The notes: generated from the letters alone by a model not told the origin. Positions 14,457 to 64,000 are shown, counted from the stretch's first letter. The stretch is 64,000 bases of DNA from Oscillospiraceae bacterium (GCA_009782215.1 WRKO01000001.1:149064-213063); one strand, 5' to 3'. Numbers and translations: made by a program.

Positions 14457-15227
14457 ATGCCGAAGGACAGAAAAAAACGCAGGCGGCGGGGAAAGGTTGG
14501 CTTTTTGCTCACCTTTCTGGTCATCGCGTTCCTCCTCCTGCTGATATTGAGCAGCGGCCTGTTTTTCAAGGTGAGCGACATCCGCGTGGAGGGGGCGTAC
14601 GCGGTCAGCCCGGAGCGGGTGATAGAGCTGTCCGGCTACGCGCACGGGGACAATATGTTCCTGCTCAACAAAGCCGCCGCCGCGCGCGCCGTCACGGCGG
14701 GGATGCCGTATGTCAGAAGTGTGAGAATCAAACGCGACTGGCCGGGCCGGGTGGTCATCGTCGTCAGCGAGGCCGCGCCCGCGGCGATGGCGGCGCACGA
14801 GGGCGAATACTGGCTGTTTGACGCGCAGGGGCGGCTGCTGGAAACGGCGCGCCTGATTCCGGCGCCGAAGCTGCCGAATGTCAAAGGGCTGTCCTTCCTC
14901 GACCCGATGGTCGGCACAAAGGTGTTCCCCATCCATGAAGACACCGCCAAGCTCGAACCGCTCCTCAGCCTGCTCAGGGCGATGCAGACGGAAAACCTGT
15001 GGCATGACGTGGCGGAAATCGACATATCGGCCCTCTCCAATGTCCGTTTCACATACACGGAACAATACAGGGTTGAAATGGGGCCGCCGGAGGCGATGGA
15101 GAAAAAATTGCAGATTATGATGCTGGCGCTTGAGCGGGAATCGGTTTCCGGCAGAGGGCCGGGGACGTTCTATCTGGCCGACGCCGCGGAGGACAAGCCG
15201 GTGCGGTTTGTGCCCGACGGCAATTAA
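14457..15227 (+). CDS. ftsQ: cell division protein FtsQ/DivIB (POTRA)
   Basis: Basic N-terminus, single TM, POTRA-like segment (VSDIRVEGAYAVSPERVIELSG), position before ftsZ. Confidence 0.75.
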   Translation: MPKDRKKRRRRGKVGFLLTFLVIAFLLLLILSSGLFFKVSDIRVEGAYAVSPERVIELSGYAHGDNMFLLNKAAAARAVTAGMPYVRSVRIKRDWPGRVVIVVSEAAPAAMAAHEGEYWLFDAQGRLLETARLIPAPKLPNVKGLSFLDPMVGTKVFPIHEDTAKLEPLLSLLRAMQTENLWHDVAEIDISALSNVRFTYTEQYRVEMGPPEAMEKKLQIMMLALERESVSGRGPGTFYLADAAEDKPVRFVPDGN

Positions 15228-15252
15228 TTTGTTACCGAAATGTAATTTACGC

Positions 15253-15281
15253 TTGACATTACTTCCCTTTACAGATACAAT
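15253..15281 (+). promoter_or_regulatory. sigma-A type promoter upstream of ftsZ
   Basis: TTGACA 15253-15258, 17-nt spacer, TACAAT 15276-15281. Confidence 0.5.
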
Positions 15282-15384
15282 ACAAAAGTACATGATTATT
15301 TCGCGGCGCGAAAGCGCAAAGAAAAAACCTTTACATACGCCCGGAAAAAGCCGGGCAGACACAAAAGACCGAGGAGATGAGGAC

Positions 15385-16530
15385 ATGGCCTTTGAGCTGG
15401 ACAGCGGGAACGAAAGCGTCGTATCCATAAAGGTAATCGGCATCGGCGGCGGCGGCAACAATGTCGTCAACCGCATGATGGAGGGCGGGGTCACCAGCGC
15501 CGACATGGTGGCCGTCAACACCGACCGACAGGCGCTTATCAAGGCGAGAGCCACGCATAAGCTGCAAATCGGCGAAAAGCAAACGGGCGGCAAGGGCGCG
15601 GGGAGCAACCCGGAAATTGGCCGCAAGTCGATGGAGGAAAGCCGTCAGGACATGGCGAAGATTCTCACCGACACCGATATGTGCTTCATATCCGCCGGGA
15701 TGGGCGGCGGCACCGGCACCGGCGCTTCGCCGATTGTGGCGGACATCGCCCGCGAACAGCATATCCTCACCATCGGCATCGTCACCAAGCCCTTCCACTT
15801 TGAAGGCCCTCACCGCATGAAGCAGGCCGAAGCGGGCATTGAGGAGCTGCGGAGCCGCGTCGATTCGCTCATCATCATCCCCAACGAACGGCTGAAGCTG
15901 GTTTCCGCCGAGAAAATCTCCTTCGCCACCGGCTTTAAGATTGCCGACGACGTGCTCAAGCAGGCGGTGCAGTCCATTTCCGACCTCATCAACACCACAC
16001 AGCTCATCAACCTTGACTTTGCCGACGTGAGCGCCATCATGCGCGACGCGGGCTACGCCCATATCGGCGTGGGCCACGCCACCGGCAAGGGCAAAGCGGA
16101 GGAAGCCAGCCGTCAGGCCATCCAAAGCCCGCTGCTGGAAACCACCATCAACGGCGCGAAGGGCGTTATCATCAACATCACCGGCGACAGCGACTTGGCG
16201 CTGGAGGACGTGGAAATGGCCGCCAACATGGTCAAAGGCGCCGTCCACCACGACGCGAATATCATCTTCGGCGCGGCCATCGACGAGGAGATGGACGACG
16301 AAATCCGCGTCATCGTCATCGCCACCGGCTTTGACGAAGGCGTCATCCGCCCCGACGATACGCTCTTTACCGGCTCCGCGGCGGCCAAGCCCGCCGCCAA
16401 GGCGGCGTCCCCGTCGGAAACGGCGGCGGAGGAGCAGGCGGCCCCCGCCCCGGCAGCCGCGGCGGAGAAAGAGGAGCCGGCCGAGGAAGACCCGTTCGAG
16501 TCTATTTTCAGGATATTCAACAAAAAATAG
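15385..16530 (+). CDS. ftsZ: cell division GTPase FtsZ
   Basis: IKVIGIGGGGNNVVNRM, GMGGGTGTGASP tubulin signature, acidic/Pro-Ala linker and conserved C-terminal peptide (DPFESIFRIF); GAGGAG SD before ATG 15385. Confidence 0.96.
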   Translation: MAFELDSGNESVVSIKVIGIGGGGNNVVNRMMEGGVTSADMVAVNTDRQALIKARATHKLQIGEKQTGGKGAGSNPEIGRKSMEESRQDMAKILTDTDMCFISAGMGGGTGTGASPIVADIAREQHILTIGIVTKPFHFEGPHRMKQAEAGIEELRSRVDSLIIIPNERLKLVSAEKISFATGFKIADDVLKQAVQSISDLINTTQLINLDFADVSAIMRDAGYAHIGVGHATGKGKAEEASRQAIQSPLLETTINGAKGVIINITGDSDLALEDVEMAANMVKGAVHHDANIIFGAAIDEEMDDEIRVIVIATGFDEGVIRPDDTLFTGSAAAKPAAKAASPSETAAEEQAAPAPAAAAEKEEPAEEDPFESIFRIFNKK

Positions 16531-16601
16531 GGGCGGATGCCCGCATCTGCCCTCGGCATGGAAACTGTATAAAAACGGGGCGATGCGGGCATCGCCCCCT
16601 A
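16529..16601. repeat. twin GC-rich palindromic units in inverted orientation (REP/BIME-like), may also act as ftsZ terminator
   Basis: GGGCGGATGCCCGCATCTGCCC 16531-16552 and GGGGCGATGCGGGCATCGCCCC 16577-16598, each a 9-bp stem; outer flanks TAGGGG...CCCCCTA; no T-tract. Confidence 0.6.
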
Positions 16602-16620
16602 CATATGTGGAGGAATCGGA

Positions 16621-17727
16621 ATGCAGAAAATCCGGCTGGGCGTCGTTGGCGCGGGCAACATAGGCCAGACGCATATCAAATACATCGCGGAGGGGAAAAC
16701 CCCGGAAATCGCCGTGACCGCCGTGGCCGACCGCCTCGGCGAGGCGCGGCGCAAGGCCGAGCCGTACGCCCCGGGAGCCGTTTTCTTTGAAGAGGGAGCA
16801 GACCTCATCCGCAGCGGCGCGTGCGACGCCGTGCTGATTGCCGTGCCGCATTATCAGCACACGGAGCTTTCCATCGCCGCGCTCAGGGCGGGGAAGCATG
16901 TGCTGTGCGAAAAACCGGCGGGCGTCTATACAAAGCAGGTCAAGGAGATGAATGCCGAGGCGGCGAAGCACCCCAAGCTGGCCTTCGGCATGATGTTTAA
17001 CCAGCGCACCAACTGCGTGTACAGAAAAATGCGGGAGCTGGTGCAATCCGGCGAACTGGGCGCCGTCAAGCGCGCCGTCTGGATCATCACCGACTGGTAC
17101 CGCCCGCAGTTTTACTATGATTCAGGCGGCTGGCGGGCGACGTGGGACGGCGAGGGCGGCGGCGTGCTGATCAACCAATGCCCGCACAACCTCGACCTGC
17201 TGCAATGGATCTGCGGGATGCCGTCAAAGGTGCGCGCCTTCTGCCATGAGGGCAAATGGCACGACATCGAGGTTGAGGACGACGTGACGGCCTACCTAGA
17301 GTTTCCCGGCGGCGCGACCGGCGTGCTGGTGACGACCACCGGCGACGCACCCGGCACCAACCGATTTGAAATCACGCTGGAGGGCGGCAAGCTGGTCTGC
17401 GAAAACAATAAGCTGACGCTGTGGCGGCTGGAGACAAACGAGCGCGAATACTGCAAAACCGCCAAAGACTACTTTGCCCCCCCGCCGCATACAGTGGAGG
17501 AAGTGGAGACGGACGGGCAAAACCCGCAGCACGCGGGCGTTTGCAACGCGTTTGCCGCCCATATCCTGCGCGGCGAGCCGCTCACGGCCCACGGGTCGGA
17601 GGGCTTGAACAGCTTGGAGCTGAGCAATGCCATGCAGCTCTCAAGCTGGCTGGGGCAGACGGTTGAGCTGCCGGCGGACGAAAATATGTATCTCAAACTG
17701 CTGAACGAGAAAAGAGGGATTGTATGA
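16621..17727 (+). CDS. Gfo/Idh/MocA family oxidoreductase
   Basis: IRLGVVGAGNIGQTHI Rossmann N-terminus, EKP motif (VLCEKPAG), 368 aa. Confidence 0.85.
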   Translation: MQKIRLGVVGAGNIGQTHIKYIAEGKTPEIAVTAVADRLGEARRKAEPYAPGAVFFEEGADLIRSGACDAVLIAVPHYQHTELSIAALRAGKHVLCEKPAGVYTKQVKEMNAEAAKHPKLAFGMMFNQRTNCVYRKMRELVQSGELGAVKRAVWIITDWYRPQFYYDSGGWRATWDGEGGGVLINQCPHNLDLLQWICGMPSKVRAFCHEGKWHDIEVEDDVTAYLEFPGGATGVLVTTTGDAPGTNRFEITLEGGKLVCENNKLTLWRLETNEREYCKTAKDYFAPPPHTVEEVETDGQNPQHAGVCNAFAAHILRGEPLTAHGSEGLNSLELSNAMQLSSWLGQTVELPADENMYLKLLNEKRGIV

Positions 17728-57896: not shown

Positions 57897-58888
57897 GACA
57901 TCTTTTTGTCATCAACCCCCACTCCTTCCGAACCATCGGCAGCTTGAAACGCATTCTGATGGATATGGAAAATTGCTTTTCGGTCGGGCGCAGAATGGAG
58001 TATAAAATCTATATTTCGCGCCGTCCGCGCGACGCCGTCGCCGCGGTGCGCCGGTATCTCCTTACCGTTCCGCCCCAAGAGACGGTGCGCGTCTATGCCG
58101 TGGGCGGCGACGGTATTCTTTTTGACTGTCTGAACGGCATGGTCAGATTCCCGAACGCCGAGCTGACAAGCGTGCCTTACGGGAGCGCAAATGATTTTGT
58201 GCGCGCGTTCGGCGACGACGCGGCCCCGGCGTTCCGCGACATTAAGGCGCTGTCCGCCGCGCCCTCGCGCCCGGTGGACGTTATACACTGCGGCCCGAAC
58301 TTCGCGCTGATTGAAGTGAATGTCGGCCTTGTCGGGCAGACGGTTATACACGCGAATACGTTTCTGCGCCATACCAACCTAAATCGGATGCGCCGTTTCA
58401 CACCCCACGTCTATACCCTTGCCGCGCTGAAGTCTGTGACGAACATGGATATTATACGGCAGAAATATACCGTTTCAATCGACGGGGAGGATATGTCGGG
58501 CAGTTACTGCAATATCCACATCGCAAACATCCCGTGCGACGGCGGCGCTTTTGTGCCAAGCCCCTATGCCGTACCGGACGACGGGCTTTTGGACGTGATT
58601 TTTCTCTCCGGCAACCGAAGCGTTGATGTGATAAAGCGGATTGGCGACCGCAACAGCGGGCATTTTGAAAAGCACACTGCCTTTGTGTACAAAAAATGCA
58701 GGACGGTAACGATTCAAAGCGACCTCCAGCTCTGTACCCAGATGGACGGCGAGGCGTTCTATACGCATGAGGTTACGCTGGAAATCATTCCGGGCGGAAT
58801 CAAGTTTTTCGCGCCGCAGGGTTTAGACTTCGCGGATTACTCGCACAGGGCGTACCGGAAAGAGAAAGGCGGCGGGAATCATGGGTAA
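57893..58888 (+). CDS. diacylglycerol kinase catalytic-domain (YegS/LCB5-like) lipid kinase
   Basis: FVINPHS, YAVGGDGILFDCLNGM (GGDG), VPYGSANDF; ATGA overlap with the regulator gene. Confidence 0.85.
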   Translation: MRHLFVINPHSFRTIGSLKRILMDMENCFSVGRRMEYKIYISRRPRDAVAAVRRYLLTVPPQETVRVYAVGGDGILFDCLNGMVRFPNAELTSVPYGSANDFVRAFGDDAAPAFRDIKALSAAPSRPVDVIHCGPNFALIEVNVGLVGQTVIHANTFLRHTNLNRMRRFTPHVYTLAALKSVTNMDIIRQKYTVSIDGEDMSGSYCNIHIANIPCDGGAFVPSPYAVPDDGLLDVIFLSGNRSVDVIKRIGDRNSGHFEKHTAFVYKKCRTVTIQSDLQLCTQMDGEAFYTHEVTLEIIPGGIKFFAPQGLDFADYSHRAYRKEKGGGNHG

Positions 58889-61607
58889 AGCAGCAAGCAA
58901 CCACAAAGAGAATCGCCGCAGGCTAAAAACTTGGCTGATTCTATCGACGGGCATCCTCGTCATATACGGCGGGATCCTTCTGCTTGACGCGTTTTTCTTC
59001 GGCGGCAGCACCCGCGTCGCGGGCGTATCCATACTGGCTGGTTCGCCGATCATTATATTCGCTTATATCGTGTATTACCTTTTCCCGCAGTTTCGCAGTA
59101 TTCCGCTTTATGTCGGGATCATGACGAATATCGTCTTTATCGCGGTCGGCGCGTATCTGCAGTATTTGGATTTTTATTTCTTTGTGATGATTTTGGTCGT
59201 CGGCACGATAACGACAACCAAAAATGTCAGGCAGATGTCGATTTTTGTAGCGGTATCGGGCGTTATAAACATCTTGGCGATGATTTTCTTAATCCCTAAT
59301 TTGGAATGGCTGAGTACCTTCCGCTTTTTCATGCAGTTTGTCATGTACTTCTTCGGCTCGGGGCTCATGCTGATTCAGACATATCACGTCGAGCAAAAGG
59401 ACAACCGCTCAGAGCGCGCCCTCGCGGCGTTTTCCGCCCTTTTACGCAGCACGCCGAATTTAATGGCCATCACCGACGCGGAGAGCAGGGTGTTGTATCT
59501 TTCCGACCCTATGGCACGGTTTATCCGCTGTCCCATCAAGGAATACGCGGTCGGACAGCCGCTGATAGACCTTGTGGCCGACGAGGATTTGAAGTTTATG
59601 TTTGCCGATATGCTGGACGCGGACGGATTCTTTGAAACCATCATGGAGCTGGACATGGACGGGGAACGGCGGCATTTCAAGATTGTGGCGGATAAGCTCG
59701 GAGGCGAGAACGAGGGGGTGTTTATCGACATCGCCGATATTACGCCTACGGTTAAAAGCCGGCAGGACGCCATAGAAGCGCAAAAGGCCGCGGAAGAGGC
59801 CAATAAGAGTAAAACAAACTTTTTGACCTCCATGTCCCATGAGATCCGCACGCCGATGAACGCGATTCTGGGCGTAGCGCAGATCCAGCTTCAGAGGGCG
59901 GATCTGCCGGAGGAATATGCTTCGGCGCTTCAAAAGATATATCAGTCCGGCAGCAATCTGCTCGGAATCATCAATGACATTCTGGATATGTCGAAAATAG
60001 AATCGGGGAAAATGGAAATCAACCCTATTGAGTATGACGTGCCGAGCCTGATAAACGACGCGGTGCAGCTCAATATCGTACGTATCGGCTCCAAGCCAAT
60101 CGAATTTCTGCTCGACATCAACGAGAACCTTCCCTCAAGGCTCATCGGCGATGAGCTGCGGCTGAAGCAGATATTGAGCAATCTGCTTTCCAACGCCATC
60201 AAGTACACGGAGGAAGGATATGTGAAGCTGTCTATAAGCCATTCGGCCCAAGACGGCGATATTGTGCTGCGGTTCATCGTGGAGGATACGGGGCAGGGGA
60301 TGACCCCGAAAGACCAGAAGCGGCTCTTTTCGGAATACTCACGCTTTAACGCCGAAGCAAACCGTGATGTTGAGGGGACGGGCATTGGACTGAACATAAC
60401 AAAAAACCTCGTGCATCTGATGGGCGGCACGATTGAGGCGGAAAGCGAGTTCGGCAAGGGCAGCATATTCACCGTTACGGTCAGGCAAGCGCCGGCCGAG
60501 TGCCTGCCTATCGGCTCCGAATTGTCGGAAAGGCTGCGGAATTTTACCTTCACCGGAGAAAAGCAGACGGCAAGGCAGAGGGTTGAGTCTATGCCGTACG
60601 GGAAAGTGCTGATTGTGGACGACGTGGAAACGAATCTATATGTGGCGGAGGGGCTGATGTCGCCCTATAGGTTGCAGATTGATACGGCCATCAGCGGGTT
60701 TAAGGCCATAGAGATGGTGAAAAGCGGCAAGAACTATGACGTCATATTCATGGATCACATGATGCCGCAAATGGATGGGATAGAGGCGACGCAAAAGCTG
60801 CGCGGCATGGGGTATGAAGGCGCCGTCATCGCGCTGACGGCCAACGCTTTGGTGGGCAATGACGTGATGTTTAAGCAAAACGGCTTTGATGATTTCATCT
60901 CCAAGCCGATAGACGTGCGGCGTTTGAACGCCGCCTTGAATAAATTTGTCCGGGACAGGCATTCCCGTAGGGACGCCATACATGGCGTCCGCACAGCCGC
61001 ACCGCACATGTATGGCGTCCCCGCAGCCGAACCAACGGACGCCATGTATGGCGTCCCTACAATGGCCGCAATTCCCCCAAAGCTGCGGGAGATATTTTGC
61101 CGTGATGCGGGGAAAGCGGTGGCCGCGCTTAGAGAAACCTCCGCGAACGGCGACGTCAAGCGGTTCACCACCACCGCGCACGCCATGAAATCCGCGCTGG
61201 CGAATATCGGGGAGGATGAAAAGTCCGGGCTGGCGCAGGCGCTTGAACACGCCGGATTGAACGGCGATACGGACTTTATAGCCGCCAACACGGAAGGCTT
61301 TATCCGAACGCTTGAAGCCCTGATTGCGCGCTTTGCGCCGCCGGGAACCGAAGCGGACGAAGCCGCGGACAGACTGGAGGACACGGCGTATCTGGCGGAG
61401 CAGCTTACGATGATTCAAGCCGCGTGCGGGAATTACGACGATACGGCGGCCTACGCCGCCCTTAACCGGCTGAAGGCGCAGCCGTGGAGAAAGGAGACGT
61501 CGGACGCGCTTGAGGCTATCCGCGACGCGCTGTTTCTGCACAGCGACTTTGACGGGGCGGCGGCGATGGCGGCGGCGCTGGCTGAAACGCGCGGGGCGTC
61601 TGGATGA
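58881..61607 (+). CDS. hybrid sensor histidine kinase 1 (6-TM sensor, PAS, HisKA, HATPase, REC, Hpt)
   Basis: H-box SHEIRTPMNAI, N/G boxes (LLSNAIKYT, DTGQGM, GTGIGL), REC (LIVDDVETN..IFMDHMMPQMDG..LTANA), Hpt (TTAHAMKSALANIG). Confidence 0.9.
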   Translation: MGKAASNHKENRRRLKTWLILSTGILVIYGGILLLDAFFFGGSTRVAGVSILAGSPIIIFAYIVYYLFPQFRSIPLYVGIMTNIVFIAVGAYLQYLDFYFFVMILVVGTITTTKNVRQMSIFVAVSGVINILAMIFLIPNLEWLSTFRFFMQFVMYFFGSGLMLIQTYHVEQKDNRSERALAAFSALLRSTPNLMAITDAESRVLYLSDPMARFIRCPIKEYAVGQPLIDLVADEDLKFMFADMLDADGFFETIMELDMDGERRHFKIVADKLGGENEGVFIDIADITPTVKSRQDAIEAQKAAEEANKSKTNFLTSMSHEIRTPMNAILGVAQIQLQRADLPEEYASALQKIYQSGSNLLGIINDILDMSKIESGKMEINPIEYDVPSLINDAVQLNIVRIGSKPIEFLLDINENLPSRLIGDELRLKQILSNLLSNAIKYTEEGYVKLSISHSAQDGDIVLRFIVEDTGQGMTPKDQKRLFSEYSRFNAEANRDVEGTGIGLNITKNLVHLMGGTIEAESEFGKGSIFTVTVRQAPAECLPIGSELSERLRNFTFTGEKQTARQRVESMPYGKVLIVDDVETNLYVAEGLMSPYRLQIDTAISGFKAIEMVKSGKNYDVIFMDHMMPQMDGIEATQKLRGMGYEGAVIALTANALVGNDVMFKQNGFDDFISKPIDVRRLNAALNKFVRDRHSRRDAIHGVRTAAPHMYGVPAAEPTDAMYGVPTMAAIPPKLREIFCRDAGKAVAALRETSANGDVKRFTTTAHAMKSALANIGEDEKSGLAQALEHAGLNGDTDFIAANTEGFIRTLEALIARFAPPGTEADEAADRLEDTAYLAEQLTMIQAACGNYDDTAAYAALNRLKAQPWRKETSDALEAIRDALFLHSDFDGAAAMAAALAETRGASG
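60967..61060. repeat. in-frame palindromic repeat module (two 24-nt inverted arms plus a half unit)
   Basis: GTAGGGACGCCATACATGGCGTCC 60967-60990 is the exact reverse complement of 61037-61060; half copy 61007-61020. Confidence 0.85.
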
Positions 61608-61630
61608 ATACAGAAAAGGGGGCTGTCTCA

Positions 61631-64000
61631 ATGAATGTTGAAAAGCTGTACAAGTATAATTTAAGGGCGGTCATCATCATCACGCTGTTCCTTGGCGGGC
61701 TGAACGTGCTGACCAACCAGTACGCCGCGGCGGGGGCTTTGCTCGGCTTCCTGATGCTGCTGATGGTTGTTTGCGGCATTCTGGCCAGCCGTATTTCCTT
61801 AACGGCGAGAATTTTATTGGTCGTTATCGGGAAATCCGCGATGACATTTTTGAATCTGTTTATGAAGGATACGGTTTATGAGTCGTTCCCGGCATTCCTC
61901 GCGGTCGTTATCCTGACGCAGATTTACTTCAACCGCAAAATTATTGTCATTCAGGGGATTACGCTGACGGCGATACTGGTGACCTATACGGCTCTGAATT
62001 ATGAGATTCTGTTTGAAAAGCATGAGCCGATGGCGATGGCGATATGTATCGCGACGTTGATTCTGGGGGTTATCTTCTCCTACATGATTGCCGGGCTGAA
62101 CAACAGCTTTGTCAAGACCGCGGACGATAAAACCAAAAGCGCCGAGGAAGCGCAGGCAAGAGCTGAGATGGCAAACGCAACCAAAACAAAGTTTCTGGCC
62201 ACCATGTCGCATGAAATCCGTACGCCGATGAACGCGATTATCGGGATAGCGCAAATCAATCTGCAAAAAAGCGGCTTGCCGGAGGAATACGCTTCGGCGT
62301 TCGGCAAAATCAATACGTCCGGGAACAATCTGCTGGGCATCATCAATGATATCCTCGATATGTCAAAGATTGAAACAGGAAAAATGGAACTCATCCCTGT
62401 TGAATATGATATCCCGAGCCTTGTCTACGACACCGTGCAGCTTAATGTCGTTCGGATTGGCTCCAAAGAAATTGAGTTCATCCTCGACATAGACGAGAAC
62501 CTTCCGTCAAGGATGATTGGCGACGAGCTGCGGTTAAAGCAGATTATGAACAATCTGCTTTCCAACGCCATCAAGTATACCGAAAAGGGGCATGTGAAGC
62601 TGACGGTAACCTACGCGATGTGCGGCGAGGATATGTTCCTGCGGTTTATTGTGGAGGACACGGGGCAGGGCATGAGGAAAGAAGACAGTGAAAGGCTTTT
62701 TTCGGAATATTCGCGCTTTAACATCGAAGCCAACCGGACGATTGAGGGAACCGGCATCGGCTTGAGCATTGTGAAAAACTTGACCGACTTGATGAACGGG
62801 ACGATTGCGGTTGAGAGCGAATACGGTAAAGGCAGTACCTTCACAGTCTCCGTCAAGCAAACGGCGGTGGCGTGCAGCGTCATCGGGCCGGAGCTTTCAG
62901 AGCGGATACGGACTTTCTCGTTTGTGGTGGATAAGCAGACCTCGAATATGCAAATAATCCGCGAGCCCATGCCGTACGGGAAAGTGCTGATTGTGGACGA
63001 TGTGGAGACGAATCTATATGTGGCGGAGGGCTTGATGTCGCCCTATCAGCTAACGATTGAAACGGCGATCAGCGGCTTCAAGGCCATAGAGAAGGTGGAG
63101 CGCGGCGGGGCCTACGACATTATTTTCATGGATCACATGATGCCGCTGATGGACGGGGTCGAAACAGCGAAGAAGCTGCGCGCGTCGGGGTATGGCGGGG
63201 TGATTGTCGCGCTGACGGCCAACGCTTTGGTGGGCAATGATAAAATGTTCAAGGAAAACGGCTTTGACGGATTTATCGCAAAGCCGATAGATGTGCGGCA
63301 CCTGAACACGGTCTTGAATAAATTTGTCCGGGACAAGCATTCCCGTAGGGACGCCATACATGGCGTCCGCGCAACGGCTGAACCACCGGACGCCCACGGC
63401 GTCCCCGCAGCGGCGCCAACGGACGCCATGTATGGCGTCCCTACAATGGCCGAAATCCCCCCAAAGCTGCGTGAGGTGTTTTGCCGGGATGCGGGGAAAG
63501 CGGTGGCCGCGCTTAGAGAAACCTCGGCAAACGGTGACGTCAAGCTGTTTACCACCACCGCGCACGCCATGAAATCCGCGCTGGCGAACATAGGGGAAAG
63601 GGAGATGTCCGAGCTTGCGCTTAGGCTGGAAAACGCCGGACTGAATGGAGACTTGGAATACATAGCCGCCGGTACGGAAGAATTTGTGCGCAAGCTTGAA
63701 GCCCTTGCGGAAAGCTTTTCCCCGGAAGCCGCGGAGGAAACCGGGGACATACAGGAGGACACGGAAGCCCTGATTGCGCAGCTTTCAATCATCCAAACCG
63801 CCTGCGGGGATTATGACGACACAGCCGCCTACGCGGCGCTTGACTGGCTGAAAGAGAAGCCGTGGGGGAAAAGGACGTCGGACACCCTTGAGGCTATCTG
63901 CGACACGCTATTTCTGCACAGCGACTTTGACGGCGCGGCGGCGATGGCGGCGGCGTATTTGGCGTTTTGCCGCGGAGACCCGATTCACCCGCCGGGCGCG
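61631..64000 (+). CDS. hybrid sensor histidine kinase 2 (different TM sensor, no PAS; HisKA, HATPase, REC, Hpt), 3' end outside window
   Basis: Manually translated: ATG 61631 after AAAAGGGGG; open to base 64000 (790 codons); SHEIRTPMNAI H-box, REC and Hpt near-identical to kinase 1; absent from ORF track because no stop in window. Confidence 0.85.
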   Translation, partial: MNVEKLYKYNLRAVIIITLFLGGLNVLTNQYAAAGALLGFLMLLMVVCGILASRISLTARILLVVIGKSAMTFLNLFMKDTVYESFPAFLAVVILTQIYFNRKIIVIQGITLTAILVTYTALNYEILFEKHEPMAMAICIATLILGVIFSYMIAGLNNSFVKTADDKTKSAEEAQARAEMANATKTKFLATMSHEIRTPMNAIIGIAQINLQKSGLPEEYASAFGKINTSGNNLLGIINDILDMSKIETGKMELIPVEYDIPSLVYDTVQLNVVRIGSKEIEFILDIDENLPSRMIGDELRLKQIMNNLLSNAIKYTEKGHVKLTVTYAMCGEDMFLRFIVEDTGQGMRKEDSERLFSEYSRFNIEANRTIEGTGIGLSIVKNLTDLMNGTIAVESEYGKGSTFTVSVKQTAVACSVIGPELSERIRTFSFVVDKQTSNMQIIREPMPYGKVLIVDDVETNLYVAEGLMSPYQLTIETAISGFKAIEKVERGGAYDIIFMDHMMPLMDGVETAKKLRASGYGGVIVALTANALVGNDKMFKENGFDGFIAKPIDVRHLNTVLNKFVRDKHSRRDAIHGVRATAEPPDAHGVPAAAPTDAMYGVPTMAEIPPKLREVFCRDAGKAVAALRETSANGDVKLFTTTAHAMKSALANIGEREMSELALRLENAGLNGDLEYIAAGTEEFVRKLEALAESFSPEAAEETGDIQEDTEALIAQLSIIQTACGDYDDTAAYAALDWLKEKPWGKRTSDTLEAICDTLFLHSDFDGAAAMAAAYLAFCRGDPIHPPGA
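63345..63444. repeat. in-frame palindromic repeat module (same 24-nt inverted arms, different middle palindrome)
   Basis: Arms 63345-63368 and 63421-63444 identical to those in kinase 1; middle GGACGCC-CAC-GGCGTCC at 63388-63404. Confidence 0.85.

Follow-up and report, generated by a model that had tools for sequence, protein, structure and literature searches.

The stretch of DNA considered here, referred to below as the window, comprises 64,000 nucleotides from a gut bacterium of the Oscillospiraceae (GCA_009782215.1, WRKO01000001.1:149064-213063), and near its end it carries two tandem paralogous genes for hybrid histidine kinases, HK1 and HK2, each of which contains a translated block resembling the repetitive extragenic palindromic (REP) sequences of other bacteria (Table 1). 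The HK1 product, which is identical to MCL2002544.1 from an Oscillospiraceae metagenome-assembled genome (MAG), matches the Pfam domains HisKA (residues 311-376), HATPase_c (423-536), Response_reg (576-686) and, below the cut-off of that family, Hpt (735-814). The block lies in the open reading frame (ORF) 58881-61607 after the receiver domain (REC), which ends at residue 686, and before the phosphotransfer domain (Hpt), which starts at residue 735, and it is translated as RRDAIHGVRTAAPHMYGVPAAEPTDAMYGVPT. The ATG of HK2 at 61604 overlaps the stop codon of HK1 (ATGA, 61604-61607), and given this overlap of start and stop, translation of the two genes is probably coupled. HK2 contains a second pair of repeat arms, base-identical to those of HK1 and at the equivalent position in its linker, with a spacer of 50 nt.

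The block in HK1 is built on a perfect inverted repeat of 25 nt (60967-60991 against 61036-61060), the arms of which are 100% complementary and lie 44 nt apart. Each arm consists of the tetranucleotide GTAG followed by the palindrome GGACGCCAT[AC/GT]ATGGCGTCC, and the 9-bp stem with its 2-nt centre is common to all four arms in the two kinase genes, where the GTAG tags stand at 60967, 61060 (minus strand), 63345 and 63444 (minus strand). The repeated 20-mer occurs four times in the window, compared with 0.03 occurrences expected from shuffles that preserve dinucleotide composition, and a single unit is free of stop codons in five of its six reading frames. In predictions of RNA folding the arms pair as a 25-bp stem, with energies of -70 and -80 kcal/mol and z-scores of -5.3 and -6.7 for the two blocks, so that on this modelling such a stem is possible in the transcript. 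A search of positions 58000-64000 against Rfam at a permissive threshold returned chance-level hairpin matches only, to a plant microRNA-precursor model (30 bits against a cut-off of 268 bits). An earlier note on this DNA, drawn from the sequence itself, had described the inverted repeat running from 60967 to 61060, and its presence and perfection stand, although its arms are 25 nt long and not 24 nt as given there. The same note had read each arm as itself a palindrome with a 9-bp stem, had placed a half copy between the arms at 61007-61020, and had assigned the translated block to the REC-Hpt linker of a hybrid kinase; the analysis of the arms, the position of the half copy, and the ORF and domain matches agree with it on these three points.

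Table 1. Positions of the kinase genes, the repeat units and related features (coordinates of the window, except where a locus of another genome is named)
Feature	Position	Strand	Remarks
HK1, hybrid histidine kinase, 908 aa	58881..61607	+	ORF and translation; host of first repeat block
REP unit 1 of HK1, left arm of head-to-head dimer	60967..60991	+	GTAG tag, 9-bp-stem palindrome GGACGCCATACATGGCGTCC, then G; read as RRDAIHGVR
Spacer between HK1 arms, 44 nt	60992..61035	+	Holds degenerate third unit
Half copy or degenerate third unit in HK1 spacer	61007..61020 (CATGTATGGCGTCC); 61007..61021 (CATGTATGGCGTCCC)	+	
REP unit 3 of HK1, right arm, opposite orientation	61036..61060	-	Plus strand CGGACGCCATGTATGGCGTCCCTAC; read as TDAMYGVPT
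HK2, tandem paralogue	61604..64000	+	Runs past window end; complete in extended contig L121 (called gene 796 aa)
REP unit 1 of HK2	63345..63369	+	Identical to 60967-60991
Middle unit of HK2, own small palindrome	63388..63404	+	GGACGCC-CAC-GGCGTCC; predicted 7-bp hairpin inside loop
REP unit 3 of HK2	63420..63444	-	Identical to 61036-61060
Intergenic REP-like head-to-head dimer, different stem	16528..16602	.	TAGGGGCGGATGCCCGCATCTGCCC, 24 nt, GGGGCGATGCGGGCATCGCCCCCTAC
REP-associated transposase genes with hairpin	L025 841-1212; L032 496-1029; L044 1100-1661; L050 3-310; L075 7725-7909		

The distribution of the hairpin was established by a scan for GGACGCCATNNATGGCGTCC in one genome per bacterial species. 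The hairpin is present in at least 120 loci of other genomes, the hosts being Clostridiales and Oscillospiraceae MAGs, Anaerolineae and other Chloroflexota, Bacteroidota, Patescibacteria and others. Among the matches listed, the richest MAGs carry at least 8-13 loci each (13 in RUG11088, 11 in SIG356, 9 in Th196P3bin17 and 9 in Anaerolineae maxbin.031), the bases that follow the hairpin are usually GC, and the tag GTAG accompanies 121 of the 154 exact copies, standing on one side only in 120 of them and on both sides in a single one. Homo-dimers among these matches comprise 9 in head-to-head, 10 in tail-to-tail and 19 in tandem arrangement, with spacers of 8-32 nt. The copies are rarer in long ORFs than chance would have them: the longest ORF covering a copy has a median length of 208 aa, compared with 410 aa at random positions, and 33% of the copies fall under ORFs of at least 300 aa compared with 70% of random positions, a measure that is crude in DNA rich in G+C. 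Where the hairpin does fall under an ORF elsewhere it is read in all of its open frames, including those that give GTPFMAS and GRHxWRP. It is found in frame in a linker, at residue 292, of a Ser/Thr kinase of an Anaerolineae genome (L106, 3030-3049), the kinase domain of which spans residues 26-279 and the 2TM domain residues 575-631, and in frame at residue 1996 of a protein from the Oscillospiraceae MAG Nt197P3bin116 (L004, 1992-2011), inside a match to the GH94 catalytic domain (1711-2170). Viral contigs yielded 5 matches among 2.9 million, so the repeat is rare on them.

Two further arrangements of the hairpin were seen in these genomes. In Clostridiales MAGs it forms tandem arrays, with periods of 83-84 nt (L017, 7662-7932), 40 nt (L112, 26-165) and 44 nt (L076, 5154-5305). 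In Herpetosiphonaceae F20_78 the copies (L022, L046, L056, L057, L074 and L120) lie at contig ends and share a common downstream sequence; five of them have GGAG...CTCC at their two flanks in place of a one-sided GTAG, and one contig (L046) begins at the hairpin itself. With their shared downstream sequence, these copies look like segments of a longer repeat at which the assembly breaks off.

In five loci a gene for a REP-associated tyrosine transposase (RAYT) contains or adjoins the hairpin (L025, L032, L044, L050 and L075), and these loci had been selected solely for the presence of the hairpin. The product of the gene in L025 matches the NCBIfam model for this transposase (NF047646) with E=1.9e-13, which is below the curated cut-off because an insertion splits the match, and the relatives in the other four loci were found by tblastn. 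The genes carry the motifs NH[VI]H (DHFH in L032), WQ and YIxxNP. In L025, L032, L044 and L075 the HuH motif is closely followed by the hairpin, which is in frame with the gene; in L050 the hairpin precedes the start codon by about 20 nt. The transposases matched by tblastn are 31-50% identical between Clostridia and Bacteroidota, yet none of the 18 bases of the REP stem differs.

The comparison with other kinases was made on the best 120 homologues of the REC-Hpt region, which are at most 61% identical to it. In none of the 120 is the peptide coded by the repeat present; their linkers are instead of the RDRHPEEAKKYKPE...NPKL type (HPEEAKKYKPE-type) and about 17-19 aa shorter than the linker in the window. 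A homologous tandem pair of hybrid kinases in the termite-gut Oscillospiraceae MAG Th196P3bin17 (L007) likewise has the ordinary linker in both members and lacks the block. Since these homologues and this pair are without it, the block is, on the sequences compared, specific to the lineage of the window. An AlphaFold2 model of the region, built from 82 aligned sequences and with a mean predicted local distance difference test (pLDDT) score of 88.8, places REC and the helical Hpt bundle above 90, while the repeat-coded residues 123-154 are mostly coil, with ten-residue blocks that average 66, 47, 51 and 67; the repeat-coded linker is thus predicted to be disordered. With five of the six frames of a unit free of stops, insertions of this kind are easy to tolerate. 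A likeness at the left junction between CCCGTAGGGACGCC and the sequence CCCGAGGAAGCGGCC of a homologue was considered and set aside as too weak to sustain an argument about a target site or a de novo origin.

The same linker holds a repeat of another kind in the homologous kinase P0025 (GCA_001462255.1), where four copies of 24 nt encode (RSRDAVIE)n (L122, 1490-1585). This repeat was examined as a palindromic REP and rejected as such, because it is a direct tandem repeat; it may be taken as a further sign that the linker tolerates repeats at the level of the DNA.

These comparisons bear on what the earlier note had proposed about the nature of the block. Its view that an extragenic-type palindromic element of the REP or bacterial interspersed mosaic element kind had come to lie in coding DNA is supported by the multiple tagged copies elsewhere, by their reading in all open frames, by the transposase genes of the five loci and by the lack of the peptide in the kinase homologues. 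The linker, which it had presumed to be flexible, is modelled as coil of low pLDDT. It had suggested searching the complete genome and relatives for the motif and aligning orthologous kinases; a search of other genomes yielded many copies, fewer of them under long ORFs than random positions are, and the alignment yielded homologues that have a PEEAKKY segment where the block stands. Its proposal that the outer flanks belong to one 28-nt palindrome that was duplicated or split does not hold, because elsewhere 120 of 154 copies bear the tag at one end and only one copy bears it at both; the arms are two opposed units that form a head-to-head dimer. On the consequences that the note had named as possible, namely an RNase III target, a cruciform or an inversion, the folding prediction goes no further than that the RNA could form a 25-bp stem.

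The two kinase genes differ from one another very unevenly along their length. Their N-terminal sensor parts are only 20% identical, and the difference at four-fold degenerate sites is 0.42-0.52 in HisKA and HATPase but 0.11-0.24 in REC and Hpt; this drop means that the 3' halves of HK1 and HK2 have been homogenised, and it suggests gene conversion as the simplest cause. Gene conversion could also have been a route by which one insertion reached both genes. Within the block, all 23 arm codons are identical between HK1 and HK2, whereas 8 of the 13 aligned spacer codons differ and an indel of two codons separates the spacers. In the surrounding REC and Hpt sequence, 20-28% of the codons for a shared amino acid differ synonymously, and at this local rate a run of 23 codons would be left without a change in about 0.2% of cases, by our own arithmetic and in a comparison that was chosen after the data had been seen. 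Identical runs as long as the arms occur twice in the Hpt domain. The identity of the arms may hint at constraint on the nucleotides or at self-correction of the palindrome, and the hint is weak because the comparison is post hoc, because it involves two sequences in one genome, and because of the equally long runs in Hpt. The protein collection holds no strain variants of either kinase, HK1 and HK2 each being the sole member of its own 90%-identity cluster.

The block belongs by its anatomy to the GTAG-tagged REPs, for which a stem of 6-13 bp and a short loop are characteristic; it lies in coding DNA, and the homologous kinases are without it. We consider it very probable that the block is a cluster of such elements which is tolerated in the REC-Hpt linker of both tandem paralogues. 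REPs are non-autonomous DNA elements that are thought to be spread by RAYT (TnpA_REP) proteins. Two units face opposite ways, each with its GTAG tag on the outside, and make up a head-to-head dimer resembling a REPIN, which the decayed unit between the arms turns into a small group. The cluster would have taken over most of the DNA that codes for the linker of the hybrid kinase, of which it now supplies some 31 of about 40 residues, and its insertion would have been tolerated because five of the six frames of the unit are open and because the linker is disordered. Its presence in both paralogues could be explained by insertion before the duplication or by copying from one gene to the other through gene conversion; this order of events and the neutrality of the block for the protein are what we infer from the comparisons above. 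The 25-bp RNA stem would be a by-product until shown otherwise.

Several points weigh against this explanation. A regular-expression search for the HuH motif and a tblastn search found no RAYT gene in the window or in L121, which together give about 74 kb of the source genome, and the same 74 kb hold no further copy of the exact hairpin, all four copies lying in the two kinase genes. Mobilisation of the block by a RAYT in the source genome, like its multicopy status there, can therefore be no more than presumed, the link to the transposase having been made in other genomes. The block also takes the place of the conserved PEEAKKY segment of the linker and is not a clean addition, so the original insertion event cannot be reconstructed. 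Lastly, perfect arms beside a diverged spacer in both paralogues are not what a purely neutral relic would predict, although this is a weak hint.

That last point bears on the suggestion that the REP arms have acquired a function and are now kept by selection on the nucleotides, whether as a site for RNase III or for ribosome pausing by which the kinase-receiver part and Hpt would be synthesised separately, or as a DNA site that drives gene conversion between HK1 and HK2 and so keeps their phosphotransfer modules alike. The unchanged arm codons beside the divergent spacers, the low expectation calculated for them and the strong predicted RNA stem all speak for such a role, but we judge it unlikely, since the comparison is confined to two sequences from one genome whose 3' halves are already homogenised, equally long identical runs are found twice in the Hpt domain, and the test of the arms was picked with the data in view. 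The block moreover recurs in no independent lineage among the best homologues or the protein clusters, and template switching at quasi-palindromes could keep the arms perfect without any function.

Still less credence is due to the idea that the 25-nt repeats flank an invertible segment, so that the linker would be phase-variable and exist in two peptide versions. The repeats are perfect, and inversion of the spacer leaves the reading frame open in both HK1 and HK2, as the earlier note had correctly claimed for the inverted core of HK1; an open frame after inversion nevertheless says little, because the REP unit has five of its six frames open in any case, and a REP origin accounts for the inverted repeats themselves. 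No recombinase or invertase is found among the genes called in L121, which extends about 8 kb upstream and 10 kb downstream of HK1, and 25 bp is short for inversion by homologous recombination. Selection in the linker for a tandem repeat of the protein, DA[IM][HY]GVP, with the palindromy of the DNA as an incidental result, could be proposed on the ground that three peptide-like units are spaced at 30-36 nt. This proposal is refuted, and we give it practically no weight: the GTAG-tagged DNA is widespread outside long ORFs and is read elsewhere in other frames (GTPFMAS, GRHxWRP), the peptide occurs in none of the best homologues, and perfect inverted repeats of 25 nt are not a product of selection on proteins.

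A second head-to-head dimer in the window, with a different stem, lies between ftsZ (15130-16530) and a gene of the Gfo/Idh/MocA family (16621-17727), and the TAG stop codon of ftsZ is the TAG of the element. The source genome thus also carries repeats of this architecture at their usual intergenic site.

For annotation, the value of these results is that peptides such as RDAIHGV, DAMYGVPT, GTPFMAS and GRHxWRP, when they turn up in the predicted proteomes of gut Clostridia and Chloroflexota, are signs of REP DNA and not conserved protein motifs. The HK1 and HK2 pair could serve as a small natural test of constraint on the arms of intragenic REPs if strain-level data become available.

Among known systems, the palindromic elements of Rickettsia (RPEs) are translated in frame in genes that are likely to be functional (cited in PMC3733652), and the block in the window resembles them in behaviour and not by membership. 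The transposases of subclass 2.4 of the TnpA_REP family carry NH[IFV]H, WQ and YIxNNP-type motifs and are unique in having a REP that is read in frame between their HuH and Tyr motifs; unrelated genes can also take up REPs, and in flexible linkers or loops such insertions, it has been noted, may do no harm (Quentin et al. 2018, PMC6006769). The transposase-like genes that bear the hairpin in other genomes share these motifs and the REP inside the gene, whereas the approximately 74 kb of the source genome that were read contain no such gene. A REPIN is a pair of inverted REPs with the capacity to form a single long hairpin, and the pair is believed to be mobile as a whole (Bertels and Rainey 2011, PMC3116915). 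The block in the window likewise consists of two inverted REPs able to form one long hairpin; it differs in that REPINs are defined by a population of near-identical doublets within a genome, while the block is known from about 74 kb of its genome, and in that its spacers of 44-50 nt hold a third unit, compared with 8-32 nt in the homo-dimers of this family elsewhere.

The family into which the block falls is the GTAG-tagged REP super-family, which is defined by short stem-loops that end on one side in an unpaired GTAG and has been surveyed in Proteobacteria, Cyanobacteria, Chloroflexi and the Planctomycetes-Verrucomicrobia-Chlamydiae (PVC) group, the main text making no mention of Firmicutes (Di Nocera, De Gregorio and Rocco 2013, PMC3733652). 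Most head-to-head dimers in that survey have spacers of 20-100 bp, which may hold small stem-loops, and more than half of the intragenic insertions are dimers or groups that encode 20-30 aa, a GTAG-7 dimer in the sensor histidine kinase Smlt4296 of Stenotrophomonas maltophilia being among the cases (Additional file 3). The use of the TAG of the tag as a stop codon is a noted habit of these repeats (PMC3733652), and the ftsZ stop in the window matches it. The block shares the stem-loop, the GTAG at one end and the head-to-head dimer, the likeness to the 24 published families being judged by anatomy. In-frame REP dimers in genes, a sensor kinase among them, and their tolerance in linkers have already been published, and the block is one more case; it adds Oscillospiraceae (Firmicutes) examples to the translated intragenic GTAG-REPs, and it differs from those described in that two tandem paralogues each carry the same dimer.

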